The notes: a model not told the origin generated them from the sequence alone. Positions 20,299 to 49,300 are shown, counted from the stretch's first letter. The stretch is 59,279 nt of DNA from Sumerlaeia bacterium (GCA_040219255.1 JAVJSW010000014.1:1-59279), one strand, 5' to 3'. A program made the numbers and translations.

Positions 20299-21471
20299 TC
20301 AGTACCGCTCCCAGTTGCCCACCGACGCCCCGCCCGCGTCGATCACGACGCGGATCAGGCCGAAGTCCGAGGCCGCCGTGGCGATGAAGAGTTCGCTCTG
20401 CGTCGCCGTCAGGGCCCGGGCCTTCATGCCGCGCCAGAGCACCGGCTCCGCCGCGCCCAGCGCATTGCCCAGATCCGTGGCGATGTCGGCAAACGCGATG
20501 GCTCCAGTCACGTCCGTGGGAACGTCCGCGCCATCCCAGAGGACGATCTGCGCGGCCGCTTCGTCGAAGCCGTAGACCGTGCCGTTGCCGTCCACTTCCA
20601 GACCGTGAAGGTCCACACGGCTGCCGCCGGGCGTGAGCGCGTCGTCCCAGCCGAGAACCTCCGGGTCGATCGGGTCGGTGGCGGAGAGGCCCTCGATGGC
20701 CAGCAATTCGAAGTTGTCATGACCGAAGATGTAAATCGTGTCGTCCGAGGGATCGATGCCGACGGTTTCGGGGGGCAGTTCGCCGGTGATTTCATCGCCG
20801 GCGCCCGCGGCCGTGGCGGCCTTGAAATCATCGACGTCGAACAGATCGACTGCGGCGGGGCTGCCCGGGGTCGTGGTTTCGTCGATGAAAACGGTCTTCG
20901 GCTCGCCACCGGTCAGGACCTCGAACTCCTCGCCGAGGGCCCCGACGATGACGCCGGTGCTGGTGACGTCGTGGCTGTTCCAGCCCTGGATGCCGGGGCT
21001 GCTGACGAGCGTGGCGGCGGTGTAGGGCGAAGCGGAGGCGTCGATCTCGAACACCGTCCAGGGATCGCCGGGGGCCACCGCGTTGATGTCGCTGGCCAGC
21101 ACCAGGCGGTCGTTCGTGCTGTCGTAAACGAACTCGCCCACCAGGGTCAGGTTGCCGGACAGGCTCAGGTCCGTCAGGATCTGCGCCTCCGTCTTGACCC
21201 AATTGGCGGCCTTGCTGGTCAGGTCGATGTGCGCCACCGTCAGGGCGCCGGAGTCGTTGTGGATGATGAAGACCGTATTGCCGGGGCCGAGGGCCACGCC
21301 GTCCAACGCGGTGCTGGAAACGGTGACGCCGGCGTTGTCGAGAGCGGTTTCGATTTCCGCGACGGTGAGGGATTCGCCGGTGCTGGCGACGCTGAATTGG
21401 GCTTCGGATTTCGACGCCGCCGCGCAGCAGGCGCAGACCGCGAGAGCGGACAGAAGAGAACGGGATGTCAT
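20299..21471 (-). CDS. Secreted acidic beta-rich protein ending in SVGNWERY
   Basis: Sec signal MTSRSLLSALAVCACCAAASKSEA, AAGGAG RBS; 390 aa; real C-terminal part of the 20299..23073 track ORF. Confidence 0.85.
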   Translation of the reverse strand: MTSRSLLSALAVCACCAAASKSEAQFSVASTGESLTVAEIETALDNAGVTVSSTALDGVALGPGNTVFIIHNDSGALTVAHIDLTSKAANWVKTEAQILTDLSLSGNLTLVGEFVYDSTNDRLVLASDINAVAPGDPWTVFEIDASASPYTAATLVSSPGIQGWNSHDVTSTGVIVGALGEEFEVLTGGEPKTVFIDETTTPGSPAAVDLFDVDDFKAATAAGAGDEITGELPPETVGIDPSDDTIYIFGHDNFELLAIEGLSATDPIDPEVLGWDDALTPGGSRVDLHGLEVDGNGTVYGFDEAAAQIVLWDGADVPTDVTGAIAFADIATDLGNALGAAEPVLWRGMKARALTATQSELFIATAASDFGLIRVVIDAGGASVGNWERY

Positions 21472-21493
21472 GGGGTAAAGGGCTCCTTCGTTT

Positions 21494-21508
21494 TGAGAAC
21501 GATTTTCA
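21494..21508. promoter_or_regulatory. Fur-like 7-1-7 box
   Basis: TGAGAAC-G-ATTTTCA versus consensus TGATAAT-N-ATTATCA, in a divergent intergenic gap. Confidence 0.55.
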
Positions 21509-21557
21509 TTCCATGGGATTCGCACAGGGACTTCGCCCTTGACGAGGCCCGCGTCAA

Positions 21558-21572
21558 TGAGAATTGTTATCA
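21558..21572. promoter_or_regulatory. Fur-like 7-1-7 box
   Basis: TGAGAAT-T-GTTATCA, 12 of 14 arm positions match consensus, 25 bp upstream of the pilin ATG. Confidence 0.65.
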
Positions 21573-21597
21573 GTATCGCCCGCCGGAGAACCGCCCT

Positions 21598-22260
21598 ATG
21601 CGCCGCGCCTTTACCCTCATCGAACTCCTCATTGTCGTCGCCATCATCGCGATTCTGGCGGCCATCGCCGTGCCCAATTTTCTCGAAGCACAGGTCCGCA
21701 GCAAGGTCTCGCGGGTGAAGGCGGACATGCGCTCTCTGGCCACCGCCATGGAATCCTACGCGGTGGACAACAACAAGTATCCCATTCCGTCGAACGCCCT
21801 CGGCCAGTTCATCACCGATCCCGCCGGCGACAATACCGTCTCGCCCTACGAGACGAAAACGCCGATCCTGCTGACGACGCCGATCGCTTACCTGACCAGC
21901 CGCCAGACCGATCCCTTTGTCATTGTGCGCAACAGCGTCGAGCCGCCGCTCTACCACACGATCACCAAGGACTTCGTGGACCTGAAGCACGATACCAGCT
22001 CGACGAACTGGAAGATTTACTGGGCGATTTTCTTCGCCGAAACGTTCAATGGCATGTCGGCCCCGCCGGCCATCAGCTACTGGCTCCAGAGCTTCGGCCC
22101 CGATCAGGTTCACGACGCCAACGTGCCCCATGCCGCTGGCGGCCCCGTATTGGGCCCGCACGTGCATGGCAACGGGGCGATTTACGACCCGACGAACGGC
22201 ACCGTTTCCGGCGGCGACATCCACTACTTCGGCCCCGGCTACGGCTTCCCGGGGAGCTGA
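21598..22260 (+). CDS. Type IV pilin / T2SS pseudopilin-like protein
   Basis: MRRA|FTLIELLIVVAIIAILAAIAVPNFLEAQVRSKVSR, SFGPD, YDPTNGTVSGGDI; 220 aa. Confidence 0.92.
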   Translation: MRRAFTLIELLIVVAIIAILAAIAVPNFLEAQVRSKVSRVKADMRSLATAMESYAVDNNKYPIPSNALGQFITDPAGDNTVSPYETKTPILLTTPIAYLTSRQTDPFVIVRNSVEPPLYHTITKDFVDLKHDTSSTNWKIYWAIFFAETFNGMSAPPAISYWLQSFGPDQVHDANVPHAAGGPVLGPHVHGNGAIYDPTNGTVSGGDIHYFGPGYGFPGS

Positions 22261-22488
22261 TGGGGGCACGGGTTTGTCATCACCGAGTCGCTCCGCTTTC
22301 GGCCTGACCTCGATCTGTGCTTTCCGCGCCATCTGTGGCAAGAAATCATCGGAGGCCCATCCGTTCCAAAAATCCCCCTCGACTTTCACCCTGGAATGCC
22401 CACAACGCCAGCGTGACCGCCCCGGACGGCATTTGTCCTCAACCCCCGGCGGCTTGCGAGCGCGGAAGGGAGGCGCCATGGGCCCTCG

Positions 22489-23118
22489 ATGATTCAGGAA
22501 CAAAAGTCCGAGCGGCTCAGCCGCATACTCTCCGATCTGGAGCGCGAGGGATGGTGCCACCTCCCCGGGTTTCTCGACCAGGCGGAGACGGCCGTGCTGG
22601 CCAGCCAGGCCATGGCCAGTTGGCAGGACGGCGCGTTCGAGCAGGCCGCCGTCGGCCATGGCGCCGCGCGGCAGCTTCGTCCCGAAATCCGGTCCGACTA
22701 TATCCATTGGGTCGATCCCGCCGCCGCCACCGGCGCTCTCGGCGATTACCTGAATTTTCTCGAGGAGCTTCGCCTCGGCGCCAACCAGTCCTTCTTTCTC
22801 GGACTCTTCGATTACGAGGGGCATTTCGCCCTCTATCCCGCCGGGTCGTTCTATGCGGCGCATCTGGATAACTTCCGCAATCAGAGCCGCCGCATGCTGA
22901 CGTGCCTGCTGTACTTGAACCACGACTGGGTGCCGGAGCACGGCGGCGTGTTGCGGCTGTACACACAGTGGGAGCCGGAGGCGGAGAGGGCGTTTGTGGA
23001 TATCGAGCCGCGGGGCGGCACGCTGGTGGTCTTCGCGGCGGAGCGCTTCTATCATGAGGTCCTCCCGGCCCACAGCGAACGCTTGAGCCTGACGGGTTGG
23101 CTTTGCCGGCGCGATTGA
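22489..23118 (+). CDS. 2OG-Fe(II) oxygenase (prolyl-hydroxylase/SM-20-like)
   Basis: IRSDYIHW, YAAHLD (HxD), LYLN, HEVLP, RLSLTGW. Confidence 0.9.
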   Translation: MIQEQKSERLSRILSDLEREGWCHLPGFLDQAETAVLASQAMASWQDGAFEQAAVGHGAARQLRPEIRSDYIHWVDPAAATGALGDYLNFLEELRLGANQSFFLGLFDYEGHFALYPAGSFYAAHLDNFRNQSRRMLTCLLYLNHDWVPEHGGVLRLYTQWEPEAERAFVDIEPRGGTLVVFAAERFYHEVLPAHSERLSLTGWLCRRD

Positions 23119-23127
23119 CGCGCCGGT

Positions 23128-24258
23128 TCAGGGATTGAGCGCGAGCCCGATGAGCGCCGCCGAGCCGGTGGGGGCTTCGGTGGCGATGACGTCGAAGGCG
23201 ATTTTCCAGGGCGTGGCGCCGTCGCTGGCCCAGGCCAGTTCGATTTCGATGGTTTCCCGGTCCCCGGCGGCGGCGCGCAGCAGCGTGCCCGCCGCCGCAT
23301 GGCGCCGGTGATCCGCGGGAAAGGCGCGCAGGCGCACCGTGGGCGGTTCGCGCCCGGCGGGGTGCTCGGCGTGGACGCGGGCCACGATTCGATGGAGCCC
23401 GCGCGGCAGGGGATCGAGCGGGGCCTTCGATTCCCAGAAGGCGAAGCTGGGCGCGCCGGGTCTGACCTGATGCACCCGCAGGCCCATGGTGGTGTCGGGC
23501 AGCCGGGTAAGGGTGGCGCGGGCCGGGCCGTAGATGACCTCGCCGCTCCAGTGGTCCGGGTTGCGGTTCCGGGGATGGGCCAGCTCCTCGAAGGTGCGCA
23601 CCGGATCGGGCGGTTTTCGGCGCCATCGGATCTGATCCTCCAGCCATGGCAGCATGTCTCCGCGATGGAGGCGGACGGCGAAGTTGTTGTTCCGGCCGAT
23701 GGCTTGGGCGATGCCCACGAGACGGTGGCTGTCGGCGCCATCGATGCGCCAGAGGGGCGAGCCGCTGCTGCCAAAGGCGAGGTCCATGCGCGTGTGATAG
23801 TCGGCGCCGTCGGCCTCGACGCCGCCGGTCACGTGCATTTGCACGGGCGTCCCGGCGAGAGCGGCGGCGTCGGACGGATAGCCGGCGATGGCGCCGCGGA
23901 ATCCGGACGGCGGATGGCGGCCCGGTTCGAAGGCCACGGGCGGCCCGATGTCCCGGTGAACGTGGGCGAGGCGATAGACGCCGACGTCGAACTCGGGCGT
24001 TTCGCCGCCATTGATGTAGCGGGGGTGGACCATGCGTTCGAGGGCCAGCGCGTAGCCGAAAGGGTCGCGGGGCCAGGCTTCGCGGGGGCCAAAGGCCATC
24101 CAGCCGCGCCGCGTGCCCAGATGGGCGCAGGAAATGGCCGTTTCCGGGGTCAGGAGGGAAAAGGTCCCTCCCCAGCGGGTGGCCGAACCGACGGTGCGGT
24201 GGGGCCAGGCTTCGGTGCCGGCGATGATGAGGCGGTCGTCTTTTCCAAAGATACCCAT
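23128..24258 (-). CDS. Trypsin-like serine protease with C-terminal beta domain
   Basis: IFGKDDR, SCAHL, FDVGV, GYP, GSSGSP triad motifs. Confidence 0.75.
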   Translation of the reverse strand: MGIFGKDDRLIIAGTEAWPHRTVGSATRWGGTFSLLTPETAISCAHLGTRRGWMAFGPREAWPRDPFGYALALERMVHPRYINGGETPEFDVGVYRLAHVHRDIGPPVAFEPGRHPPSGFRGAIAGYPSDAAALAGTPVQMHVTGGVEADGADYHTRMDLAFGSSGSPLWRIDGADSHRLVGIAQAIGRNNNFAVRLHRGDMLPWLEDQIRWRRKPPDPVRTFEELAHPRNRNPDHWSGEVIYGPARATLTRLPDTTMGLRVHQVRPGAPSFAFWESKAPLDPLPRGLHRIVARVHAEHPAGREPPTVRLRAFPADHRRHAAAGTLLRAAAGDRETIEIELAWASDGATPWKIAFDVIATEAPTGSAALIGLALNP

Positions 24259-24312
24259 GATGCGTGACAGACTCCTGGGGTGGGATTGGGGGAGTCTGCC
24301 GCAAGTGGTTCC

Positions 24313-24369
24313 GTTTGTCCCCTCATGTGGAGACTAAGGAGCAAGAAAGACAAGATACACTTATCAGAC
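24313..24369 (+). repeat. Dispersed 57-bp repeat
   Basis: gtttgtcccctcatgtggag-N9-caagaaagacaagatacacttatcagac; both blocks identical at 27722-27778. Confidence 0.85.
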
Positions 24370-24511
24370 AAGATCGACAAGAAAGGGAACTCGGCTTGAC
24401 GAATGGAGAAGGGTGGACTTGGATTTCCCCAAGTTCTCCTTGTTTGTAGTGAAAGGCTCCATTGTCCCCCCCGATCCCAAGCGACTGTTGAAGCACCCAG
24501 GAGTGTCGACC

Positions 24512-25783
24512 ATGGCTGAAGCTGAAAAAAGTTCCGCGAAAACGTCCACCGCCGCGAAGAAATCCACGGCGGCGAAGAAAAAGTCAGCCTCGTCCGCGGG
24601 CCTGGAGAATTCCATCGCCTCCCTTGAGCAATCCGTCGCCGACCTGGGCCGGCGCCTGGACGAGGGGCTGGCTTCCATCACCGCCGCCGCGGCCGCCCAG
24701 CCCGCCCCCGCGGAGGCGCCCGCGGCGCCAGACTACACGCCGCAGCTCGCCGCTCTGGAGCAGCGCGTCAACGCCACGGCGGAGAAGCTGGCCGAGACGG
24801 ACGCGCACCTGAAAGCGGCGCTCGAGGCGCTCGGTCAGAAGGTCGACGCCCACGACCACAGCGGCGTTCACGGCCAGATTTTCGAGCGCTTGGACCATGT
24901 GCAGGGCGCGCTGGGCGACATCCAGGGCAAAGTCGCCCACCAGGATGCGGGCGCGGCGCTGGGGCCGGTGTTCGAACGCCTCGACCACCTGCAGGGCGCC
25001 ATCCACGGCCTTGAGCAAAAGGTGGCTGGGCAGGATGCGGGCCATGTCCACGGCCAACTCTTCGAACGGCTCGACCGCGTGCAGGACGCCCTGGGCACGA
25101 TCCACGGGCGCCTGCATGCGGAGGACGAAGCCGCCGCACATGAGCATCTGATCGAGCGGCTGCGGGAAGTTCACGTCTCCGTGGAAGCGGCCAAAGGACA
25201 GTCCGAAGCCGCCCGGCGCGCTCTGGAGAGCCACTCGGGGCCGCTGAACGACATGCGCGAAGGCATGGTCTCGATCACCGCGCGGCTCGATCATCAATCG
25301 GACAAACTCGACAAAATCGTGGACGCGATGGCGGCCGCGGTGACCGATATCCGAGCCACCGTGCACGGAGCCGACGCCGGGCCGAAACTGGCGCCGGTGC
25401 AGGAGAGCCTCGTTCAACTGAATCAGAAGGTCGAATCGATGGGGGCGGCGCTGCTGAAGGAAACGCAGCGCCTGAACCAGGTGAAGAGCGAGCTGGCCGA
25501 GGAACTGCGCGCCGTGATGTCGAGTACGGCAGACAGCATGCGCAACACGCATCAAACGTCGGAGGACAACATGGGCGCCACATTGGCGGCGCTTCAGTCG
25601 TCGGTGCAGAAGCTGTCAGCCAAACTCGACTCGTTGGAAGAAGCGAACCAGAGCAAGAAAGACCACGAGCCGCTGCTGCAGAAGCTTCAGGCGGATGTGG
25701 GCGGGGTGAAGACGCTGACGCTGATTCTCGTCTTCGTCATCCTCATCGTTCTCTTGGTGAATGTGTTCGGATTTTTCTTCTAA
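24512..25783 (+). CDS. Tail-anchored coiled-coil protein with His-rich 30-aa repeats
   Basis: Lys/Ala-rich N-terminus, FERLDH/RVQ repeats, single C-terminal TM helix; AGGAG RBS. Confidence 0.85.
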   Translation: MAEAEKSSAKTSTAAKKSTAAKKKSASSAGLENSIASLEQSVADLGRRLDEGLASITAAAAAQPAPAEAPAAPDYTPQLAALEQRVNATAEKLAETDAHLKAALEALGQKVDAHDHSGVHGQIFERLDHVQGALGDIQGKVAHQDAGAALGPVFERLDHLQGAIHGLEQKVAGQDAGHVHGQLFERLDRVQDALGTIHGRLHAEDEAAAHEHLIERLREVHVSVEAAKGQSEAARRALESHSGPLNDMREGMVSITARLDHQSDKLDKIVDAMAAAVTDIRATVHGADAGPKLAPVQESLVQLNQKVESMGAALLKETQRLNQVKSELAEELRAVMSSTADSMRNTHQTSEDNMGATLAALQSSVQKLSAKLDSLEEANQSKKDHEPLLQKLQADVGGVKTLTLILVFVILIVLLVNVFGFFF

Positions 25784-25804
25784 GTCAATAAAAATCAACG
25801 CATT

Positions 25805-25933
25805 GTAACACAGACTCTCCAGTCTGTGCATCCCCGGGCCTCGGGGACACAGGCAAGAGTGCCTGTGCCACATTTCGGCGGGGAACTCTTGGACGAGAAG
25901 CGCCGCGGGTCACGGGCGGGACGCCCGTGCTAC
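25805..25933. repeat. Cluster of three REP-like palindromes between convergent genes
   Basis: GTAA-cacagactctccagtctgtg, cacaggcaagagtgcctgtg-CCAC, cacgggcgggacgcccgtg-CTAC. Confidence 0.75.
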
Positions 25934-25937
25934 TTTT

Positions 25938-27494
25938 TTAGATCACCCGGTCGTACTCGCTCAAATCCATCGTCCAGACCCGGACGCCGCAGTAGCGCGC
26001 GCCTTCGGGGCAGATGGGTTTCGTGCCGGCCATGGCTCGCAGGGTGCAGGGCGGCAGAAGATAGCGGCCGATGTTAGGCTGGACCGCGCGGATTTGGTCG
26101 GCTTCATCGACGGAGGCTTTCCAGATTTCTTCTTGGGCGTTATAGCATAATCGCATTTCGTGTTTGTGGCGAAGGTTGAGAAGATCGGCGCTCTCAGTAA
26201 ATCGCACCGACGCCGCGTTGGGCAGGAGATAGAGAATGTGCTCGGGCGCGGCGCCGAGAGTCCGCAGTTTTTCCATCGCGTTCCAGGATTGCTCCATGAT
26301 GCCGGAGTAAATGCGCGCCGCCGTGTCGTCCATTTCGATCAATTGCGGGGTGATGTAATCCGGTTCGGCATCCACGTGGGCCGCCAGGATCGGGCGTGAC
26401 GCGGGAGTCATGCGGTGGCGCTGGTCCTGGCTGTCGGCGGTGTGCGAGATTTTCTTTTTGAAGGTATAGTGGGCGTGGAAGAGAGCGCGGCTGAGTTTGC
26501 TGACGGTGGTCAGGTTGAGCGACTCGCCGAGGAGCCGGTTGCGCCCCGGGTCGAGGGCCAGGCGGATCGCCTCGGCGTCCTTCAGGTCTGCCCGCGTCAG
26601 CCCTATGACCTCGCGCACGGCGTCGGCGACGAGGCTTTCGGCCTGGGGCGACCAGCCCACGAGGCGCGACGTGCGGCCGTCGAGGGCGGCGTCGAACTCG
26701 GCGCGGAAGGCGGTGGCTTTGGCGCCGGAGAGGAGTTGGGGCTCGTTGGCGAAGAACTCGGCTTCGGGAAAGGCGGCGGGGTCGAGGGGTTCCTGGAGCG
26801 TGATTTCGTAGTCGGGGTCGAATTCGAGGAGTTGGCGCACCATTTCGCCGACGATGGCGCGGGTTTCGTCGGGCACGTCCTGCTGCTCGCAGACACGCCA
26901 GTAGCGCAGCAGCGTGACGGCGGAAATCGTGTGGTACAGGTACGCCGTGGTGCCGACGGGCAGGACGTAGCGGGCGATTTCCTGGGCCTTTTTCTTTTTC
27001 GCGACGGCGTGCTTTTTGGCCATCCGTTCGCTGCGGGGAAATCGGGCGTGGAAGGCGGCGTCGGCGGGGCCGAGGAGGACTTCGCACAGCTCCTGATAGG
27101 CGGCGAACTGGGCTTCGGCGGTGCGGGCGAAGAGGGTTTGGGCCTCGGGCGTGGGGAGCTGCGGCGTCGTCATCGTGTCCGGCTTGACGGTGACGTAACG
27201 CTGGCTGACCTGCTCGCTGTTGTAGAAGGGGTGGGCGTGGAGGAACGACCAGATGAACTGGCGCGAGACGTTCTCCATGGCGAACTGGAAATGGGCGTGC
27301 TGAAAGGTGGTGTGGTGGCCCGCTTCGTAGATGGATTTGGCCAGGGGCGAGAACTTCTCGCGGTCGCCGACGGCGCCGTCGTCGATGATGCCCTTGCTGG
27401 AATAGCAGGTCCGGGCGGTGGCCACGGTGTTGCGAAAGGGGGTGGTGAAGGCCTTGTGCAGGCGGATCTGGGGGGGCGCTGAGAGGAAGGGCAT
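25938..27494 (-). CDS. thyX: FAD-dependent thymidylate synthase, tandem two-domain form
   Basis: AGHHTTFQH, VSR, SQRY, EIARYVLP in domain 1; QRHR and YLLPNA, MRLC...AQEEI in domain 2; 518 aa. Confidence 0.88.
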   Translation of the reverse strand: MPFLSAPPQIRLHKAFTTPFRNTVATARTCYSSKGIIDDGAVGDREKFSPLAKSIYEAGHHTTFQHAHFQFAMENVSRQFIWSFLHAHPFYNSEQVSQRYVTVKPDTMTTPQLPTPEAQTLFARTAEAQFAAYQELCEVLLGPADAAFHARFPRSERMAKKHAVAKKKKAQEIARYVLPVGTTAYLYHTISAVTLLRYWRVCEQQDVPDETRAIVGEMVRQLLEFDPDYEITLQEPLDPAAFPEAEFFANEPQLLSGAKATAFRAEFDAALDGRTSRLVGWSPQAESLVADAVREVIGLTRADLKDAEAIRLALDPGRNRLLGESLNLTTVSKLSRALFHAHYTFKKKISHTADSQDQRHRMTPASRPILAAHVDAEPDYITPQLIEMDDTAARIYSGIMEQSWNAMEKLRTLGAAPEHILYLLPNAASVRFTESADLLNLRHKHEMRLCYNAQEEIWKASVDEADQIRAVQPNIGRYLLPPCTLRAMAGTKPICPEGARYCGVRVWTMDLSEYDRVI

Positions 27495-27721
27495 GGCAGG
27501 CGAGGGACGACGGGGATGGGGTTTCGGAGAGAATGGGCCACAGGAGGGCGCGGGCGGTCTGCAAGAAAATGTCGGGGGAGCACCGGTTGGCGCATCGATG
27601 TTTGATATGGCTTGGCTTCGGCGAATCACCAAGTTCGGTTTCGGTGGGGCGGATGGGAGTGTCATGGCGGGCGGTGTCCTGTGCGAGGGGGCGATGAGGA
27701 GAGCGTCGCACAGGCCGGCTG

Positions 27722-27778
27722 GTTTGTCCCCTCATGTGGAGCTTACGGGACAAGAAAGACAAGATACACTTATCAGAC
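27722..27778 (+). repeat. Dispersed 57-bp repeat
   Basis: Second near-identical copy of 24313-24369. Confidence 0.85.
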
Positions 27779-28081
27779 TAAAGGGACAAAAGGCGCTTAG
27801 GGGCGGGTAAGTCTTGGAAAGGGAGGAGTTTGGAACCGCGGATGGACGCGGAGGGGCAAAGAAGCAGGGAGGGTGGCTGGCGGAGAAGAGAGGGTGGTGC
27901 TGGGCTTTTGCGCCTGAAGGCGGGACTACGAGCGGCTCGGCGGGAGGGAGGGGGGCGGGAGCTGTTCCAACGCCCGCTCTTGACGGCTCGCGCTGGGTGC
28001 GCCTAGCGTCTCGGACCCGTGTGGCGGGCTTCTCGCTCGCGCACAATTTTTTCCCAAGGACGGTCACAAGCCGTGTCCCAG

Positions 28082-30970
<2,889 letters not shown>

Positions 30971-31001
30971 CGGCGAAGCACGGAAGGAATCTGGACACAC
31001 G

Positions 31002-39732: not shown

Positions 39733-39820
39733 CGCGCTGGGCGAGGCGGCGAGCCGCGCCAGGTCCAGCTATTCCTGGTTGTAATCGGCGCTCTCGGGCA
39801 GGGCAACGACCCCCGAGAGG

Positions 39821-39985: not shown

Positions 39986-40027
39986 AGGGCCAGAAATAGG
40001 CCGAAGCCTTTTCTCTGGCCCCAAGCC

Positions 40028-42730
40028 TTACTCGAACAACATCCAGCCATCCAGACTGCTCGGCGTGCCGAAGAAGTTCATGGCGGCGGTCATGACATCG
40101 TCGCGGTCGATTTGATCGACGATGGTTTCGAAGGGGAAGCCGAGGAACACGACTTTGCCGCCGCCGTTGGAGCCATCGTAGGTGACGGCCGCGTTACCGC
40201 CGGAACCGCCGCTGTAGGTCATGGCGGCGATGGCTCCGGTGCCGGTGGGCGTCAGCATGTCGGGGAAATTGACGTCGTAAGTGCCGTTCGTGCCGTTGTC
40301 GAAGGTCAGCGAGGCGACGCCGCTGAAGATCGAACCGCCGGCGCCCGCCGCGGTGTAGGTGGCGGCGTCATCTCCCGCATAGGCGGCGAAGAGCACATTG
40401 TTCATAAAGGCGCGGTCGGCGGTCGAGGGGCCGGAAGGACGGTCGAGGTCCCAGGCGATCTCCGAGCCGCTGACGAAGAGATGCCCGCCGCCGGTCTGGA
40501 AGGCTTCCACCAAGGGTTGCTCGGCGTCACTGAAGGCTTCGTCGATGGTGGATTCTTCGCCGAGGACATAAACAGCGGCGAAGTAGCTGGCGAGGTCGAT
40601 GGTGCCGTCCTCGATCATTTCATTGGCGACGGTATCGACGCTGCGGCCGCTGGGGATGCTGGCGGCGGTGATGGCGGCGAAATCGTGACTCTCGTTATCG
40701 GCGTTGTCGCTGTAAGTGTTCCAGCGATCGAAGCCATCGACCACCAGGATTTGCGCCGGGCTGGAGCCGACGACGGCCTGGAAGACGTCGGAGGTCTTGG
40801 TTTCGCCGCCGGGGCCTTCGGCGGTGACGCGGTAGTTGCGGCGCTGGCCCGCGGCGAGGCTCGATTCCTCGAAATAAAGAGGGATGAAGCGCACGGCGGC
40901 CGGGTTCATGCGGTCGTCGGCGCCGGTGGTGACCTGCAAAGCGTTCGCGAAGGCGACGCTGTGGCCCTGGCCGGGCACGAAATCGAAGGTGCCGACGCCG
41001 CGCCAGCGATCACCGGCGGTCTGCTCGGACAGCTCGAAGACACTGGAGCGGATGCCGTCGGCATCGTTGAAGGTCACTGTGGTGCCGGGGGCGTTGGCGC
41101 TGGCGAAATCGAAGCAGGTGACATCGACCCGGTAGCGGCCTTGGGCCAGCCCGGACGGCGCGAAGGTCGCCGTGCCGTTGCCCGTGGTGGGGCGGATGAA
41201 GCGCGAGCCGACGGCGCCGGAGAGGCCCGGGGCGGTGCTGTGGGCCGAGCTGTTCTCGAACCCGCCGGTGTCGCTGTAGTCGGCGTTGTTGAGGCCACCG
41301 GCGCCGGACTCGATGATGTAGGCGGGGGCCACGGAGGCGGCGGGGGCAAGGGGTTGGCCCTGATCCGCGGCGTACACTTCGTAGCCGTCGGTGACGACGG
41401 CGGGGTTGCTCCACTCGACGCGGACGGTGCCGCCGCCCTGGTTCAGAACGGCCAGGGTGTTGGGCGAGAAGGGCGGGTAGTCCTCGCCCAGGACGCGCAC
41501 CACATCGTCGATGGCGTCGCGGGTGGTGGTGACGGCGATCGGTTCGCCGCCCGTGTCGGCGCCCGGAGTGTTGGCGTAAATCGAGAAGAGGTAGCGATCT
41601 CCATCCAGCGGATGATCGATGTAGCCAGAGAGCGAGACGACGCCGGAGTTGGGCAGTGTGCCTGTCTTGGCGTGGACATCGCCCGCAAGGGTGCCGCCGA
41701 GGCGGCTGCCAAGGGTTCCATCGACGGCGCTGATGGGCAGCGTGTCGTCGTAAGTCGGATGGTTGGCCAGCATGTAGCGGATGGTGTCCACCGTCTGGCG
41801 GGCCGAGAAGAAGTTGTCGCGCGAGAGGCCACTTCCATCGGCCTGAGCGGCGCCGGTGTTATCGACCCCGGCGGTGTTCTGGAGCCAATCGAGGACGGCG
41901 GTTTCGCCGGCGGCGAAGCTGCTGGTGCCGGAATCGACATAGCCGAGGTGCATCAGGAAGAGGTCGGCCATCACGTTGTGGCTGACCTTATTGAGAATGC
42001 GCGCGCAGCCGAACAGGTCGAGGTCGTCGCCGTAGCCGTTCTGCAGGGCGTCGCTCTGATAGGTGACCAGAAGCGTCGATCCGCCGGGAATCGTAAAGGT
42101 GTCGAAACCGGCGGAGTTGATGACCGAGCCGAAGCTGACGCCGTTGTCGATGAGTGCCGAGCGGAACGCCACGGCGGCTTCGCGATTGAGTTCGTCCTGG
42201 GCGGTGAACTGGTGACCTTCGCTGGTCGAGCCATAGTTGTAAATCATGGCGCCGTAGCCTTCGACGCGGCCGTTGATGGTATCGACACCGGCGGACTTGA
42301 CCAGGGCGGCGATGGCCTGGAGGGCGGCGTCGGCGTTGCCGCTGCCGAAGACCGAGGTGTTCCAGGACGGGTCGTGTTCGCTGATCAGAACGATGTCGCC
42401 ATTGAGCGTACCAGCCGACAGGGTGCCATCGTAGTAGACGCGCGTTTCGAAGGTGTAGGTCTCGCCCAGGATGCCGAAGGCGGCTGCCGTGGTGAAAATC
42501 TTCGTGTTGGACGCCGGAATGTGGGGGACATCGGCGTTGCGGTCGTAGTAGATGGTCGAACCATCTTCATCCTCGAAGAGAATGGTCCACTCGTAATCGA
42601 GGATGGTGGCTTCATCGAGGAGGTCGTCGATTTCCTCCGGGATGGTTTGGCCGGGCAGAGTCGCAGCCAGGCAGAGAGCCGAGGCTAACCCCAATGGGAT
42701 GAGGTCTCGGCCAAATGGGAAGAACGGCAT
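40028..42730 (-). CDS. dacB: D-Ala-D-Ala carboxypeptidase/endopeptidase (PBP4, peptidase S13) with extra C-terminal domains, ending SSLDGWMLFE
   Basis: Signal peptide, PASNTK (SxxK), SHN, DGSGLSR, AKTGTL; then FN3-like and further domains. Confidence 0.9.
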   Translation of the reverse strand: MPFFPFGRDLIPLGLASALCLAATLPGQTIPEEIDDLLDEATILDYEWTILFEDEDGSTIYYDRNADVPHIPASNTKIFTTAAAFGILGETYTFETRVYYDGTLSAGTLNGDIVLISEHDPSWNTSVFGSGNADAALQAIAALVKSAGVDTINGRVEGYGAMIYNYGSTSEGHQFTAQDELNREAAVAFRSALIDNGVSFGSVINSAGFDTFTIPGGSTLLVTYQSDALQNGYGDDLDLFGCARILNKVSHNVMADLFLMHLGYVDSGTSSFAAGETAVLDWLQNTAGVDNTGAAQADGSGLSRDNFFSARQTVDTIRYMLANHPTYDDTLPISAVDGTLGSRLGGTLAGDVHAKTGTLPNSGVVSLSGYIDHPLDGDRYLFSIYANTPGADTGGEPIAVTTTRDAIDDVVRVLGEDYPPFSPNTLAVLNQGGGTVRVEWSNPAVVTDGYEVYAADQGQPLAPAASVAPAYIIESGAGGLNNADYSDTGGFENSSAHSTAPGLSGAVGSRFIRPTTGNGTATFAPSGLAQGRYRVDVTCFDFASANAPGTTVTFNDADGIRSSVFELSEQTAGDRWRGVGTFDFVPGQGHSVAFANALQVTTGADDRMNPAAVRFIPLYFEESSLAAGQRRNYRVTAEGPGGETKTSDVFQAVVGSSPAQILVVDGFDRWNTYSDNADNESHDFAAITAASIPSGRSVDTVANEMIEDGTIDLASYFAAVYVLGEESTIDEAFSDAEQPLVEAFQTGGGHLFVSGSEIAWDLDRPSGPSTADRAFMNNVLFAAYAGDDAATYTAAGAGGSIFSGVASLTFDNGTNGTYDVNFPDMLTPTGTGAIAAMTYSGGSGGNAAVTYDGSNGGGKVVFLGFPFETIVDQIDRDDVMTAAMNFFGTPSSLDGWMLFE

Positions 42731-42829
42731 GAGTCGTCTCCTTGAGCGTCAGATTGAAAAATGTCATAGTAAAGAAACTATTTGCGGGCAAGCGGAGAGT
42801 GCCGGGGGTTGGGGAGGTCGGAGAGCCCT

Positions 42830-43133
42830 CACCACAGAGTGCACAGAGATCAGAGGCTTCACAGAGAAGCAGTAAAATGTCCTGGTAGCTGAAACTCCAG
42901 GATTCATAATTTCAATTATCTGCAATCTATTTGCACAACCATTGTCAGGAAGTTTCACTCATACACAAAGAAAGGATCCGGGTAGTTCTGATGATTTTTG
43001 CAATCTTTTCAATTTCTGAAGAAAATGGTGCCAACACTCTCGAGTCACCCCGGCAAAAGGTTGCGTTTAGTTTTTGATTCACTTAAGCTCCCCTGCGGCA
43101 AACCTCTCCGTGTCCTCTGTGGCTCTGTGGTGA
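42830..43133. repeat. ~304-bp intergenic element bounded by CACAGAG / CTCTGTG periodic inverted repeats (copy 2)
   Basis: Left caccacagagtgcacagagatcagaggcttcacagaga, right tctccgtgtcctctgtggctctgtggtga; near-identical length to copy 1. Confidence 0.75.
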
Positions 43134-43262
43134 ATTTTGTGAAGGAGTGGGGCCTGTGACATCCCCCACCTTACGCCTTGTTTTTCGAGGCGGGGTGGGC
43201 GTATAGACTGGGGAAACTGGCGCCCGCGCCGCCGCGGGGTCAGGGGGAGTGTTTCCGAGATC

Positions 43263-45023
43263 ATGGCCGTTTCCACCGATGCACCGACGCCGTTGCGCGA
43301 TCGTTATCCTTTGCTCGATTATTTGGCGCTCTATCGCCCCTATCGCGGGCGGGTGGCTTTGGCTGTGTCCATCGCCTGTCTCAAGCACGCGCCAGTGCTG
43401 CTGCTGCCGATGTACACCGCTTATATCTTCGACGTGGCGATTCCGATCGGGTCGGTGGAGGACGTGCTGCTGTGCGCGGTGGGCATGGTGGCGATGCTGG
43501 TGGCGAACGTGTGCCTGCATCCGATTTTCATCCGCCTGTGGAGCCACGCCCGCCGCGAAGTCGCCCTGGACCTGCGGGCCCGGGTTTGTAACCGAATCCA
43601 GCAACTCGTCTTCAGCTACTACGACACGGCGAGCAGCGGCCGCCTGCACAGCAAAGTCATGCAGGACGTGGAAAAGCTGGAGAACCTGGGCCGCGTGCTG
43701 ATCGATCCGCTGCTGCTGATGGGGCTGACGGCGCTGGCGGCGCTGAGCATCGTGGCGTTTATCGAGCCGATTTTCTGTGTCGTGCTGGTGCTGGCGCTGC
43801 CGATTTGCCTCTTGCAGCGGCGGCTGATGTCGCGGCGGGTCGAGGAGCGGTTTCAAACCCTGCGCGTGGAGCAGGAAAAGCTGAACGCGGAAGTGACGGA
43901 AATGATCGGCATGGTGCCGCTGGCCCGCGCCCACGCCACGGAGGCCGAGGACCTGCGGCGCGTCGATTCGCGCCTCGGCGCCGTGCGCGACCAGGGCCTG
44001 CGCGCCGACTGGTTCCAGCACCTCTTTCAAAGCCAGGTCTGGTTTACCATGCAGAACGTCAGCGTGGTGGTCATCGTGCTGGGTTCGCTGCTGGTGATCT
44101 GGGGGCGGATGAGCCTGGGCGAGGTCGTCATGTTCATGTCACTGGTGATGATGAGCCTCGGCGGGATCAACGCGCTGTTCAGCCAGATGGAAGTTTTCTA
44201 CGGCGCCAGCGAAGCGATGCGCTCCATCAACGAGGTGCTGAACAATCCGCAAGTCGAGCAAAACGAGGGCAAACCGGCGCTGCCGCCGTTGCGCGGCGAG
44301 ATCGCCTTCGACGCCGTGACCTTCGCCTACCCGGGCACCGCCGAACCCGTCTTGCGTAGTGCCTCGCTGACCGTCGAGGCGTGCCAGACAGTGGCCCTGG
44401 TGGGACCCAGCGGCGCGGGCAAGTCCACCTTTATCAAGCTGCTCCTCGGGCTCTACCAACCGCAGAAGGGCGCGGTGCGGATCGACGGCTACGACCTGCG
44501 CGAGGCGGACCTGCGGACCCTGCGGCGCCAGGTCGGCGTCGTGACCCAGGAGACCTTCCTCTTCAACGGCACCATCGGCGACAACCTGTGCCATGGTCTG
44601 GGCGATGTGCCCCGCGACCGCATCGAGTGGGCGGCGGAGCAGGCCAACGCGCACGACTTCATTTCGGCGTTGGAGAAGGGTTACGACACGGAAATCGGCG
44701 ACCGCGGGGTGCGGCTCTCCGGCGGCCAGAAGCAGCGCCTCTCCATCGCCCGGGCGCTGCTGCGCAACCCGCGGCTGCTGTTGCTCGACGAAGCCACCAG
44801 CGCCCTCGACAGCGAAAGCGAGCGCCTTGTACAGGAAGCGCTGGAGCGGCTGATGGACGGCCGGACCACCTTCCTGATCGCCCACCGCCTCTCCACCGTG
44901 CGCCACGCCGACCGCATCCTGGTCTTCGATCAGGGCCGCATCGTCGAAGACGGCCCGCACGAAGAGTTGCTGGCCCGCAAAGGCGTATACGCGCGTCTGG
45001 TGGAGTTGCAGACGGTGGCGTAG
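43263..45023 (+). CDS. ABC exporter, fused permease/ATP-binding protein
   Basis: N-terminal TMD, GPSGAGKST, LSGGQKQR, LLDEATSALD, IAHRLST. Confidence 0.96.
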   Translation: MAVSTDAPTPLRDRYPLLDYLALYRPYRGRVALAVSIACLKHAPVLLLPMYTAYIFDVAIPIGSVEDVLLCAVGMVAMLVANVCLHPIFIRLWSHARREVALDLRARVCNRIQQLVFSYYDTASSGRLHSKVMQDVEKLENLGRVLIDPLLLMGLTALAALSIVAFIEPIFCVVLVLALPICLLQRRLMSRRVEERFQTLRVEQEKLNAEVTEMIGMVPLARAHATEAEDLRRVDSRLGAVRDQGLRADWFQHLFQSQVWFTMQNVSVVVIVLGSLLVIWGRMSLGEVVMFMSLVMMSLGGINALFSQMEVFYGASEAMRSINEVLNNPQVEQNEGKPALPPLRGEIAFDAVTFAYPGTAEPVLRSASLTVEACQTVALVGPSGAGKSTFIKLLLGLYQPQKGAVRIDGYDLREADLRTLRRQVGVVTQETFLFNGTIGDNLCHGLGDVPRDRIEWAAEQANAHDFISALEKGYDTEIGDRGVRLSGGQKQRLSIARALLRNPRLLLLDEATSALDSESERLVQEALERLMDGRTTFLIAHRLSTVRHADRILVFDQGRIVEDGPHEELLARKGVYARLVELQTVA

Positions 45024-45047
45024 AGGAGGCGGGTTGCGGGGCTGGCC

Positions 45048-46577
45048 TTACTGGCGCGTGCGGTTCTCGCCGGGCAGGCGGTCGCGCAGGCGTGCGCGGG
45101 GGGATGCATCACCGGCTGCGGAGAGTTCGGGCTCCCATCGTTGGGCCAAGGTCTTCGAGTCCTCGGGGAAGAGAATGGCGGCGTAGGAGAGCAGGCGGAC
45201 TTTCTGGCGCGGGTTGAGGCCGGGTTCCTTCTCTCGGACAAAAGCCTGGAACTGTTCGCGGTGTGTCGAACTCTCCGGCGAGTTGGCGGCGGCCCAGGCG
45301 CCGATGGTGTCCTGAGTTTCCCGGGCCGAATTCAGGGCGGTCTGAGCCAGGAGAGCGGGCGGTGCGGGCAACCCGGCGTCCCACAGGATCTGGGCGCCGC
45401 GCTGGATGTCTTCGACGGTTGCCTGGCTGAGGTCTTCTTCCGGATGGGTGGGGGCGGAGACCGTTACAGTCTGCGGGGCCGCAGGAGGTAAGGGAGCGGG
45501 CGCGGGTTTCCCGAGCACGGCCCAGGCGCCGCCGGCGAGGGCGGCCAGCACGAACGTGGCGGCAAGGCGGGGAAACCAGGGGCTGCGCCGAGGCCGGGGG
45601 ATCGGGGTTTGAGGGAGCGGGAGCGCTGGTTCCTTAAGAGCGGGGAGCAGGACCCGAAGGTCGGCGACCGCCTCGGACCACTCGGCATAGCGCTCGTCCG
45701 GGTCTTTGGCGGTCAATTTCTTGAGAAGGCGAACGAGGCCACCGTCGGCGACGGTCTCCCAGGTGCTGGGGATGGGCAGCGGTGTGTTGGCGTGGTGATA
45801 GAGGACCTTCAGAGGGGTTTGGCGGGCGTAGGGGGCGTGACCGGCGAGAAGGGAGAAGAAAGTGCAGCCGAGAGAGTACATGTCGGACCGTGCGTCGGCC
45901 GGGCCGCCATAGGCCTGCTCGGGAGCCATGTAGGCGGGTGTGCCGACGAGGGTGCCGGACTGCGTCAGGCCGCTGTCCAGGTCGAGGCGCTTGGCGAGGC
46001 CGAAGTCCATAATTTTGAGAGTTCCATCCTCGCAGAGGAACAGATTGGCGGGTTTGATGTCGCGATGGATGACGTGGCGGGAGGCGGCGTAGGCAAGGCC
46101 CTCGGCGGCGGTAAGGATGAGGCGGAGGGCTTCGCGCGGTTCCATCGGGCCGGTGGCGCGAATCCGTTGCGAGAGGTCCTGGCCCGTAAGGAATTCCATG
46201 GCGATGAACGGCAGCCCCTGGGCTTCGCCGAGACTGTAGACGTTGGCGATGGCGGGATGGCTGAGGCGGGCGGCGGCGCGGGCTTCGGTGCGCATGCGCT
46301 CGGCGAGGACCGGATAGCGGGCGACGCGGGGCGAGATGATCTTGAGCGCGACGGTACGTTCAAGGGTTTCGTCCCAGGCCGCGAAGACGCAGCCCATGCC
46401 TCCCGAGCCGACCGGGCGGAGCAGGCGGAAGTTGCCGAAGCGGGCGGGAAAATGACTGCCATCGCCAAAGGGATTCTCGGATGAATCGAGAGGGCTGGTG
46501 AGTTCAGCATCGTCCCATTGGGTATCGATAGGGGACGATATGGAACGGCCGGGGGCGGTCGGGACGTGATGGTTCAT
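45048..46577 (-). CDS. Hanks-type Ser/Thr protein kinase, membrane-anchored
   Basis: GSGGMG, VALK, HRDIKPAN, DFGLAK, GTPAYMAPEQ, one TM. Confidence 0.95.
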   Translation of the reverse strand: MNHHVPTAPGRSISSPIDTQWDDAELTSPLDSSENPFGDGSHFPARFGNFRLLRPVGSGGMGCVFAAWDETLERTVALKIISPRVARYPVLAERMRTEARAAARLSHPAIANVYSLGEAQGLPFIAMEFLTGQDLSQRIRATGPMEPREALRLILTAAEGLAYAASRHVIHRDIKPANLFLCEDGTLKIMDFGLAKRLDLDSGLTQSGTLVGTPAYMAPEQAYGGPADARSDMYSLGCTFFSLLAGHAPYARQTPLKVLYHHANTPLPIPSTWETVADGGLVRLLKKLTAKDPDERYAEWSEAVADLRVLLPALKEPALPLPQTPIPRPRRSPWFPRLAATFVLAALAGGAWAVLGKPAPAPLPPAAPQTVTVSAPTHPEEDLSQATVEDIQRGAQILWDAGLPAPPALLAQTALNSARETQDTIGAWAAANSPESSTHREQFQAFVREKEPGLNPRQKVRLLSYAAILFPEDSKTLAQRWEPELSAAGDASPRARLRDRLPGENRTRQ

Positions 46578-46772
46578 GGGGAAAAAGCCTCCAATCCGGG
46601 GATTCCGGGACGAGCGGGTCTCACAGGGAAAGGAAGAGAGGAAGAACGGTGCCATCGAGCGAGAAAAAAATCCCCCTTTTCAAGCGGACGGGGATTGGCA
46701 TAGGAGTTTTCCACAGGCAGACACGTTCCCCATTCCAAGTTCCCGTTGTGGCCTGCGAGAAGATCTGGACCG

Positions 46773-47528
46773 ATGAACCCAAACGACTTAGAGAGTTACC
46801 TGTCCGCCACGCTGGGCCGCCCGGTGGCGCTGCGGATCAATACGAACAAGCGGTCGATCGTGAGCAGCCGGGCGGGCTCGCGGAGCCGCGAACTCCGGGC
46901 GAGCATCCACCGGCTGTTCCTGGACGCGCCGTTGCCGGTCCTGTCTGCGCTGGCGGATTTCTTGAGGAATCCGGGGCCGGAGAGCCGGGCGGTGCTGCGC
47001 GAATACTTCACCGATTGGGAACAACGCCAGCCCCAGCCTTCGGCGCCAGTGACGCGGGGGCTGCGGCGGGGCGAGACGGCGCGGGGCCGTTTTGTGGACC
47101 TGAAGCCGAGGGCGGCGGCGATCGGCCGGGATTACTTCGGGGGCGGGCTGGATTTCGACATTTGCTGGGGCAAACCGTGGACGCCGCGACGCGGCCAGAG
47201 CACGATCCGCCTGGGGGTGTGGGTGCCGGACCGGCGGTTGGTGCGGATTCACCGGGCGCTGGATTCGCCGTTCGTGCCGGATTTTTTCCGCGATTATGTG
47301 ATCTACCACGAACTTTGTCACGCGGCCCTGCCCAGCCGGCGCGACCGCGCCACAGGCCGCATGCTGCACCACACGGAAGCCTTCTACGCTCTCGAACGCC
47401 AGTTCCGCCATTATGAGGAAGCGATCCGCTGGCAGGAGCAGAACCTGGACCGGCTGCTGCGTGGGAAGTTGGAGATGGCGGTGAAGGGGCAGAGCGGAAG
47501 TCTTCAGATTCAGCGGGCTGGCTCGTGA
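46773..47528 (+). CDS. SprT/YgjP-like zinc metalloprotease
   Basis: IRLG, IHRALD, YVIYHELCH, HHTEAFYALE. Confidence 0.8.
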   Translation: MNPNDLESYLSATLGRPVALRINTNKRSIVSSRAGSRSRELRASIHRLFLDAPLPVLSALADFLRNPGPESRAVLREYFTDWEQRQPQPSAPVTRGLRRGETARGRFVDLKPRAAAIGRDYFGGGLDFDICWGKPWTPRRGQSTIRLGVWVPDRRLVRIHRALDSPFVPDFFRDYVIYHELCHAALPSRRDRATGRMLHHTEAFYALERQFRHYEEAIRWQEQNLDRLLRGKLEMAVKGQSGSLQIQRAGS

Positions 47529-47546
47529 CAGAGCGGGGCCCGGCTT

Positions 47547-48335
47547 TTACTCCCCGCCCAACGCGTTGAACACGCCGCCGAGGACCGAGCCTTCGCCCTG
47601 GGACTTGCCGCCGCCTTGGGGGGCGGCTTTGAAGATGCGGCCGGCGAGGCGGCTGAACGGCAGCGATTGCATGAACACGCGCCCGGGCCCACGCATGATG
47701 GCCAGGAAGAGGCCTTCGCCTCCGAAGAAGGCGGATTTGAGTTTCTGCATTTCGATGTCGTACTGCACCGATTCCTGGAACGCGACGAGACAGCCGGTGT
47801 CGAGGCGCAGGACCTCGTTGGGGCCCAGGTCTTTGTGGTGGATCGTGCCGCCGGCGTGGATAAAGGCGAGGCCGTCGCCTTCGAGTTTCTGGAGGATGAA
47901 ACCTTCGCCGCCGAAGAGGCCGGCGCCGAAGCGCTTGTTGAACGCGAGGCCGACGTTGATGCCGTCGGCGCTGCAAAGGTAACTGTCCTTCTGGCAGAGC
48001 ATGGTGCCGTACTGAGCGAGGTCGAGGGGGACGATCTTGCCCGGATAGGGTGCGGCGAAGGCGACGATTTGCTTGCCCGCGCCCCGATTGGTGAAGGTGG
48101 CGAGGAAAAGCGATTCGCCGGTGGCGAGGCGTTTGGCGCCGCTCATCAGTTTGCCCATGAGGCCCTTGTTCTGGTCCTCGGGGTTGCCAAATCGGGTTTC
48201 GGCCACGATGCCTTGCTCCATGTACATCATGGCGCCGGCTTCGGAGATGACGGTTTCGCCCGGGTCGAGGATGATTTCCACGAACTGCATTTCCGAGCCG
48301 TGCAGGTTGTATTCGATTTCATGTGCTCTTGGCAT
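47547..48335 (-). CDS. AIM24 / TIGR00266 family protein
   Basis: MQFVEIILDPGETVISEAGAM, TGESLF, FGGEGFILQKLEGDG, QSLPFSRLA. Confidence 0.92.
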   Translation of the reverse strand: MPRAHEIEYNLHGSEMQFVEIILDPGETVISEAGAMMYMEQGIVAETRFGNPEDQNKGLMGKLMSGAKRLATGESLFLATFTNRGAGKQIVAFAAPYPGKIVPLDLAQYGTMLCQKDSYLCSADGINVGLAFNKRFGAGLFGGEGFILQKLEGDGLAFIHAGGTIHHKDLGPNEVLRLDTGCLVAFQESVQYDIEMQKLKSAFFGGEGLFLAIMRGPGRVFMQSLPFSRLAGRIFKAAPQGGGKSQGEGSVLGGVFNALGGE

Positions 48336-48421
48336 GTGTTGAGCCTCCGCGCGAGAGAAAGAATGTCGCAGCCCTTTTAGGACCGGTCCGGGTTGCGGAC
48401 CAAGCTCTTTTCCCTCCCGGT

Positions 48422-49300
48422 TCAGTAGAGATCCCAATGAGGGACGGAGGTCGTCGTTTCGTTTTGCAGCGGCACCGCTTCGGCGACCGCTCCGGAATCG
48501 GCGCGAAGCGCGACGGGAGCGCCCGCGGCCGGGGGCGTTGGCAGGGCGAAGCGGACGAGGCGGTCGGTCCATTCGAGGACGGTGCCGTCGACTTCCGACC
48601 CATTGACGAGGACGGCGCCGGTGCCCTGGGAGTTGCCGAAGCGGTAGCCTTTGACGCGAAGTTCGATCGGCGCCGCCGCCTGCTTGGCGGGAACGGCGAG
48701 GCGGGCGCTGGAGATGGCCAGTTCGGTGACGGCGCCGCCGAAGCGGGCGACGATGTCGTCACCGCTGACGGTGCCGTCGGGGCCGAGGCTAACGATGGCG
48801 TAGCGGTCGAAGTCGTCGCCGTAGAGGTCGAGGGAAACGGTCCCGGAACGCGGCACCGCCAGCCCCAGCGGCGTGAAGAAGTAGTAGGGCTCGCCCCAGG
48901 GATCGAGGGGCGAGCCTTCATCGTAGGGGTCGGTGGGGCCGGTGACGTCGTCATTGGTGAAGGCGGTCAGGTAGGGGCCCTGCCATCCGGAGAAGGGATC
49001 GAAGGGGTCGGGCTGGAGAATCACCCGTGAGGGTTCGAAGCGGCCGGCGGCGGGGCGGAGCACGAGGGCGCCCCCATCGAAGTTGATCCAATCGAACTCG
49101 TAAGTGTCGGTGGGGCCAGGCAGATCGTCGAGGTTTTCGATGGTCGTGTAGGTACCGGTGTCGATGGCGACCTGCTCCATGGCGCCGGCGATGTTGGCGG
49201 TTTCGACGATGGCGGCGGTGACGCTGGCGGATTGGGCGCTGGCGCAGACCGGCGCCGCCAGAAACACCATAGCGGAAGCGATTGCGGGAAGTGACCTCAC
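48422..49300 (-). CDS. Secreted protein with GspG-like pseudopilin head plus IPT/TIG-like domain, ending SVPHWDLY
   Basis: Sec-type signal (start uncertain), WQGPYL, PLDPWGEPY, SLGPDG...DDI, then VKGYRFGNSQGTGAVLV...WTD. Confidence 0.8.
   Translation of the reverse strand: MRSLPAIASAMVFLAAPVCASAQSASVTAAIVETANIAGAMEQVAIDTGTYTTIENLDDLPGPTDTYEFDWINFDGGALVLRPAAGRFEPSRVILQPDPFDPFSGWQGPYLTAFTNDDVTGPTDPYDEGSPLDPWGEPYYFFTPLGLAVPRSGTVSLDLYGDDFDRYAIVSLGPDGTVSGDDIVARFGGAVTELAISSARLAVPAKQAAAPIELRVKGYRFGNSQGTGAVLVNGSEVDGTVLEWTDRLVRFALPTPPAAGAPVALRADSGAVAEAVPLQNETTTSVPHWDLY

Follow-up and report, generated by a model that had tools for sequence, protein, structure and literature searches.

A conserved C-terminal W-x-x-[YF] tail on heterogeneous Sec-exported proteins of Sumerlaeota

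Three tailed proteins in one window

The stretch of DNA analysed here (59,279 nucleotides from a Sumerlaeia bacterium, GCA_040219255.1, JAVJSW010000014.1:1-59279, taken as a whole and called the window) encodes three proteins, named cargoes 1, 2 and 3, each of which has a signal-peptide-like N-terminus and closes on a short tail containing a tryptophan followed at a fixed distance by an aromatic residue (Table 1). These three genes had been singled out from the sequence alone as encoding secreted proteins that end in a shared motif, and the open reading frames (ORFs), C-termini and N-terminal signals were all found to be as described in that original prediction. The window's gene call placed the tail on 3 of 12 signal-peptide-like proteins and on none of the 25 others, in agreement with the statement that no cytoplasmic protein of the window is tagged.

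Table 1. Positions of the three proteins, their tails and other features referred to in the text; positions without a contig name are those of the window
Feature	Position	Strand	Description
Cargo 1	20299..21471	(-)	Exported six-bladed beta-propeller protein, 390 residues (ORF, AlphaFold2, Foldseek)
Cargo 1 tail	20302..20334	(-)	GGASVGNWERY; short small-residue linker + V-x-x-W-x-x-Y
Cargo 2	40028..42730	(-)	Exported PBP4/DacB-like protein, 900 residues (Peptidase_S13, Golvesin_C, ~270-residue domain)
Cargo 2 tail	40031..40060	(-)	SSLDGWMLFE; G-W-M-L-[YF] subtype + one extra acidic residue
~270-residue domain of cargo 2	40061-40888	(-)	Residues ~615-890; no Pfam or NCBIfam match
Cargo 3	48422..49318	(-)	Exported pseudopilin-like domain + TIG domain, 298 residues (282 from a later start)
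Cargo 3 tail	48425..48451	(-)	TSVPHWDLY (ORF end TTTSVPHWDLY, then stop)
Pilin-like ORF	19990-20178	(-)	62 residues; adjoins cargo 1
T2SS-like operon	C34:6134-24700		GspE, GspF, GspG-like, minor pseudopilins, GspL-like
HtrA gene	C34:26259-27917		After the T2SS-like operon
TonB-dependent barrel locus (L154)	C33:601-13587		Barrel between a tagged gene and the second Omp85-family gene
Four-PDZ HtrA (L073)	C42:167662-169764		HtrA-type protein with four PDZ domains

No Pfam or NCBIfam family was matched by cargo 1. Cargo 2 matched Peptidase_S13 (E = 1e-50) and TIGR00666 (above its cut-off) and contains a Golvesin_C domain, and its C-terminal ~280 residues had no match in Pfam or NCBIfam; its translated ORF ends in GTPSSLDGWMLFE directly before the stop, and the G-W-M-L-[YF] subtype seen there also closes about 10 other proteins of the genome. 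Cargo 3 gave only weak matches to T2SSG/GspG-like models. In this protein a GspG-type pseudopilin-like globular domain (DPWGEPYYF) is fused to the TIG domain, and an ordinary Sec signal peptide stands in for the prepilin leader.

AlphaFold2 models were inspected for cargoes 1 and 3. Cargo 1 (mean predicted local distance difference test score, pLDDT, 84.8) is folded to about residue 378, and residues 383-390 fall below a pLDDT of 50 without secondary structure; Foldseek searches with this model returned six-bladed propellers. Cargo 3 (pLDDT 88.1) returned TIG-type domains and a type II secretion system (T2SS) chain, and its last 10 residues have a mean pLDDT of 54 with one helical turn at W-D-L. 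Because AlphaFold2 leaves the tail unstructured in both models, it behaves as a free linear motif, predicted to sit on a linker outside the fold of cargoes 1 and 3.

Abundance, conservation and distribution of the tail

The whole genome (5.35 Mb, 83 contigs, 63.6% GC) yielded 3829 genes with a crude codon-usage caller made for this analysis. A position matrix applied at 9 bits or more found 62 C-terminal matches (62 of 3829 genes, about 1.6%) compared with 3 matches at 40-44 residues from the end of the same proteins. The consensus reads [AS]-[SA]-V-x-[DNG]-W-x-[LMIV]-[YF] with 0-2 residues before the stop, Trp being invariant and Tyr/Phe nearly so. When 38 seed tails were aligned on the Trp (position 0), the preferred residues were [AS] at -5, [SA] at -4, V at -3, [GDN] at -1, [LV] at +2 and [YF] at +3; 24 of the 38 end on the aromatic, and 14 add one residue, mostly E, D, Q or N. 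In all 62 proteins the stop lies 0-4 residues after the W-x-x-[YF] core, and in the 38 seeds any residue that follows the core is mostly acidic or amide, which bears out the observation, first made on the window alone, that the tail has neither a transmembrane helix nor a basic end. About 10 further proteins of the genome close on a W-x-[MILV]-[LIV]-[DE] variant.

Ends of the form W-x-x-[YF], with at most one further residue before the stop, were found on 38 of 967 signal-peptide-like proteins and on 24 of 2862 others (Fisher odds ratio 4.8, p = 1.6e-9), and 2.7 W-x-x-[YF] ends would be expected from the internal frequency of the motif in the same proteins. The narrower expression proposed with the original prediction, [SA]-[VL]-x-x-W-x-x-[YF] plus at most one residue, gave 10 signal-peptide-like proteins and 4 others over the full proteome (odds ratio 7.5, p = 3.6e-4), so that by either count the motif is commoner on proteins with a signal peptide. 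A signal-peptide-like N-terminus was recognised in 58 of the 62 tagged proteins, 45 at the called start and 13 at another in-frame start, a rescue that also succeeds for 103 of 400 untagged controls; the other four have none.

All-against-all BLAST gave 42 clusters for the 62 tagged proteins, and 37 of these clusters hold a single protein. A common ~120-residue C-terminal domain unites a group of seven, and a common ~200-residue domain with the tail at its end unites a group of three. Pfam assigned no family to 13 of 23 tagged proteins scanned; assigned cargoes include a subtilase, a lamin-tail-domain protein, a 2483-residue FG-GAP/TSP3 protein, an SdrD-B-like protein, an SGL-type propeller, a VCPO-like protein, a DNRLRE/CBM96 protein and the PBP4-like enzyme. 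The idea of a recurrent tag on dissimilar Sec-type exported proteins, put forward from three examples, has therefore held over 62 proteins in 42 clusters enriched in signal peptides.

The tail was also kept in orthologues of all three window proteins. Matches to cargo 1 occur in 15 of 75 Sumerlaeota genomes, and V/L-x-x-W is retained in 13 of 14 complete, distinct C-termini, 11 of which end in W-x-x-[YF] plus 0-6 residues and 2 in W-M-[IM]-[ML]-[ND]. In the alignment, the V of the tail is invariant and the W nearly so, and the 4-6-residue linker is variable; one orthologue (L028, from genome G031) has a ~90-residue dockerin-like module in place of the tail. For cargo 2, W-[MVIF]-[LIMF]-x plus 0-2 residues closes 10 of 13 full-length orthologues, and the other three have an extra ~95-103 residues ending in GLVLF, GIVLH or SISIY. 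The tail remains at the very end whichever domain precedes it, and in L054, a paralogue of the cargo 2 domain, a dockerin-like module takes its place. Most families of the phylum have clear orthologues of cargo 3 (E ~1e-30 or better). Of the 27 orthologue C-termini from the phylum that are complete, 25 close on W-x-x-[YF] plus 0-1 residue, the exceptions being one that has lost the Trp and one with a different extension; tailed orthologues are present even in f7, f9 and f10, families in which tails are otherwise few. A search of a 5.8-billion-protein collection gave 29 other homologues of cargo 3 with 31-47% identity, all without a name or labelled "hypothetical," and every one of these ends in W-x-x-[YFL], mostly with an extra residue after the aromatic.

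To follow the tail across genomes, the DNA pattern V-x-x-W-x-h-[YF]-stop was counted against its reversal as control. This pattern gives 11 matches in the genome of the window, covering 8 of the 62 tagged gene ends. Over the 75 Sumerlaeota genomes there were 1038 matches against 442 for the control, with 54 genomes above their own control and 33 at least twofold above it with at least 10 matches; the scan of relatives suggested at the outset thus finds the tail over-represented in most genomes of the phylum. Family f15 is the richest (e.g. 66 against 6 and 57 against 9), and no excess was seen in f5, f7, f10, f16 and most of f11. Because cargo 3 orthologues show tails in tail-poor families, this profile is quantitative rather than a matter of presence or absence.

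The stricter pattern [AS]-S-V-x-D-W-x-[LF]-Y-stop was searched in the genomes of 185,579 species, one genome per species, with 47 matches, 10 of them at the end of ORFs of at least 150 residues with a true stop and the remainder in short frames or at TGG ends. Eight of the 10 lie in records titled Sumerlaeota or BRC1, one in an unclassified metagenome-assembled genome (MAG) and one in a Burkholderiaceae MAG, the last probably by chance. The phylum of the unclassified MAG, here called the second phylum, was represented by 35 genomes of 4-8 Mb, in which the first pattern gave 1672 matches against 496, with 33 of 35 genomes above control and ~108 matches against ~21 in the richest. Sampled matches in one of these genomes close 25 frames of at least 277 residues, which represent 23 distinct genes of several families, and 20 of the 25 frames begin in a signal-peptide-like manner when the same lenient scan is applied. 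Two unrelated genomes showed no pattern excess (2 against 7 and 3 against 5). Extrapolating from the recovery of 8 of 62 by the pattern, the tail may mark several hundred proteins per genome in the second phylum. The tag was originally thought to be lineage-specific, a description that has to be given up, as the second phylum carries it in larger numbers.

The motif itself, its C-terminal restriction, signal-peptide enrichment, cargo diversity, conservation, predicted disorder and two-phylum distribution are each directly supported, and the tail is a genuine, conserved C-terminal tag on some 60-70 heterogeneous Sec-exported proteins of this Sumerlaeota genome.

Possible roles and candidate readers

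The explanation favoured here, with a probability of roughly 0.55, is that the tail is a short linear motif read in trans, a localisation or docking label that acts after Sec export. Tagged proteins would first cross the inner membrane through Sec; a flexible linker of Pro, Gly, Ser, Thr and Ala would hold the motif at the extreme C-terminus, and a trans-acting envelope component would then read the tail and fix the final place of the protein, which would be carried across the outer membrane, kept at the cell envelope or surface, or both. We infer both the reading in trans and this outcome from the properties of the tail. A linear label is suggested because the W and the aromatic persist while linker and cargo diverge, and because the two dockerin-like replacements, in L028 and L054, occupy the position of the tail.

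Several observations weigh against such a label. No reader of the tail was found, every candidate tested having failed or not discriminated. Genes within three positions on either side of tagged genes included pilin-like and kinase-like genes, AAA/GspE-like ATPases (4 of the 17 in the genome), extracytoplasmic function sigma factors, LacI regulators and ABC sugar-binding proteins, with no specific family among them and no neighbourhood signal except at one locus on contig C34. One cargo is PBP4-like, and the usual substrate of such an enzyme is periplasmic, a poor fit to an export signal. Dockerin counts were not anticorrelated with tail excess across the phylum (Spearman -0.10, p = 0.41), and among the dockerin proteins of one dockerin-rich relative, 3 of 19 have homologues in the genome of the window, none of them tagged; the argument from module replacement therefore rests on the two cases above. 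The gene and signal-peptide calls were also made with crude heuristics of our own and not with a validated predictor.

Three candidates were set aside on their distribution. The ~270-residue domain of cargo 2 is amplified in many tail-rich Sumerlaeota families (9-14 matches per genome), often in tandem within one ORF with Pro/Thr linkers between the copies, and is nearly absent from f7, f9, f10, f11, f16 and the second phylum. As a receptor it was rejected, since it has matches in 6 of 35 second-phylum genomes, five of them weak and the sixth (G104) in a genome without tail excess. Genome G104 itself has six strong matches to the domain (best E = 4e-56) and pattern counts of 11 against 14, which suggests that its copies came by transfer or from a mixed bin. 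The second candidate was the only TonB-dependent barrel of the window's genome (L154), which we take to be Oar-like; it lies next to a tagged gene, has a CarboxypepD_reg-like N-terminus and is followed by ExbB/ExbD/TonB-like genes. Full-length orthologues occur in 9 of 75 genomes, none of them in the tail-richest family. Lastly, the cargo 3 family, considered as a shared part of a machine, was found in none of the 35 second-phylum genomes and shows no conserved synteny.

An unlikely alternative is that the tail needs no reader and acts as an interfacial anchor to membrane or lipopolysaccharide, with the Trp, the aromatic and one or two aliphatics on one face of a two-turn helix. C-terminal amphipathic anchors exist on some DD-carboxypeptidases, and one cargo is a PBP4-like enzyme; the invariant Trp and nearly invariant Tyr/Phe, the V(-3)/W(0)/[YF](+3) spacing that suits one helical face and the short helical turn at W-D-L in the cargo 3 model all agree with an anchor, and a lipid target could easily serve very many cargoes per genome. 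However, the tail offers just four or five hydrophobic residues, and it is flanked by acidic or amide residues ([DN] before W; E, D or Q after the aromatic) instead of basic ones, a poor match to anionic bacterial lipids, and the specificity for V at -3 and [DNG] at -1 is more like that of protein recognition.

Similarly doubtful is export of the tagged proteins by a secretin-based, T2SS-like pathway with the tail as its signal. This is favoured by the locus on C34, where an operon with GspE/F/G/H-K/L-like genes has directly upstream of it, and on its own strand, two genes ending in W-x-x-Y-E and a gene for a 667-residue exported protein, and by the predicted models of cargoes 1 and 3, which are folded soluble proteins. 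Secretins fit as well, but they do not discriminate because they are present in 75 of 75 Sumerlaeota genomes, and their copy number runs the wrong way, with 2-4 where tails are most numerous and 8-13 in tail-poor families. Matches to the T2SSK model are rarest in the tail-richest family f15 (3 of 13 genomes), although this model is unspecific and also matches Bacillus and others, and the PDZ proteins found in the genome included none of GspC type. Pilin-like genes lie within three genes of 9 of the 62 tagged genes, which is no enrichment over the signal-peptide baseline of 8.9% (p = 0.12). The proposal that a pilin- or T2SS-like machine reads the tail, part of the original prediction, was accordingly not upheld, with pilin adjacency not enriched, secretins universal and T2SSK rarest where tails are richest. 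The genome contains 44 pilin-like genes, ~35 of which encode a nearly identical N-terminus (FTLIELLIVVAIIAILAAIAVPNFLEAQ...), and many end in G-D-[IV]-x-R.

Less probable still is that a PDZ protease or chaperone of the periplasm (HtrA, CtpA or M28-PDZ) binds the tail as its ligand, for processing or quality control. Classic PDZ ligands are hydrophobic or aromatic C-termini, and the genome has three proteins of HtrA type, one of them with four PDZ domains, one S41 CtpA and two M28-PDZ peptidases, one of the latter encoded beside a tagged gene. A variable polar or charged residue nevertheless follows the aromatic in 14 of the 38 seeds and in most of the cargo 3 family, which is a poor fit to a reader that recognises a hydrophobic last residue. 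The HtrA with four PDZ domains, present in f1, f4, f11 and some of f10 and f16, was rejected as a reader because the tail-richest families lack it (0 of 13 in f15 and 0 of 3 in f13), and the ubiquitous HtrA and CtpA cannot account for a tag of two phyla.

Very improbable is a tail without any role in trans, that is, a structural or stabilising end-cap acting in cis or a mimic of the outer-membrane beta-signal: some tagged proteins do share a C-terminal domain that ends in the motif, and outer-membrane barrels typically end in an aromatic residue, but 37 of the 42 clusters hold a single protein with unrelated domains ahead of the tail, both models leave the tail without structure and undocked, the cargo folds are soluble, and the genome's two Omp85 proteins (RLRGGF and FGFQFGL) and its one TonB-dependent barrel (GLSASF) end unlike the tail.

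Comparison with known sorting systems

The tail was compared with described C-terminal sorting signals through family models and the literature. NCBIfam gave no relevant match for 13 whole tagged proteins or for 10 isolated 40-residue tails, with E values up to 10, and Pfam gave nothing at the tails of the tagged proteins scanned. No such tail was met in full-text literature searches on Sumerlaeota/Sumerlaea, Hinthialibacter and C-terminal sorting signals, or in the available text of PMC8092238 and PMC9324843. Within these databases and this literature, the tail thus matches no described sorting family, in keeping with the original prediction.

In the available text of one account, the known small C-terminal signals are tripartite, consisting of a signature, a transmembrane helix and an Arg cluster (10.1101/2023.06.07.544157). 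The pairs LPXTG/sortase, PEP-CTERM/exosortase, GlyGly-CTERM/rhombosortase and MYXO-CTERM/myxosortase resemble the tail in being short C-terminal signatures that recur on signal-peptide proteins of unrelated kinds, dozens of them in a genome, and in being restricted to certain lineages. They differ from it in the transmembrane helix and Arg-rich cluster that follow the signature, as far as that same text describes them (10.1101/2023.06.07.544157), and the tail has neither. The PEP-CTERM model TIGR02595 had no match in the genome, in a search that was silent in the controls too.

The C-terminal domain (CTD) of type IX secretion systems (T9SS; TIGR04183/PF18962) likewise marks a large and heterogeneous set of Sec-exported soluble proteins for a step after the periplasm. 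It is a folded domain of ~70-100 residues and the tail comprises ~8 disordered residues, in line with the original remark that the tail is far shorter. TIGR04183 gave a single weak internal match (29 bits) in the whole genome, on an untagged protein, and SprA_N (PF14349) gave none there, nor in any of 14 control genomes.

Dockerin type I (PF00404) is, like the tail, a C-terminal addition to diverse secreted proteins, but is a duplicated calcium-binding fold of ~60-70 residues with a known cohesin partner. The genome has four PF00404 matches, and none of them falls on cargo 1, 2 or 3. Two genomes of one genus in the window's own family (G031 and G032) have 33 and 24 matches to this model and little tail excess. 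The outer-membrane beta-signal, read by the beta-barrel assembly machinery, also places an aromatic at or beside the C-terminus. It belongs to barrel cargo and has alternating hydrophobic residues, whereas the hydrophobic residues of the tail do not alternate and the folds here are soluble (a propeller, a pseudopilin-like domain with TIG, and a PBP4-like enzyme, none of them a beta-barrel).

It is tentatively proposed, at somewhat short of even odds, that the tail is the address label of a pathway without a described counterpart, a label of ~8 residues with no transmembrane segment that would be read by machinery not yet recognised and common to Sumerlaeota and at least one other candidate phylum. 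The tag occurs in uncultured, polymer-degrading phyla, where it provides a sequence rule to predict which proteins share one envelope or extracellular compartment, and the tail counts form a quantitative phyletic profile over two phyla that can be used to seek the reader. C-terminal address tags have repeatedly led to envelope machines, namely the sortases, exosortases, rhombosortase, myxosortase and T9SS, and from the tags of each of these the tail differs in architecture.

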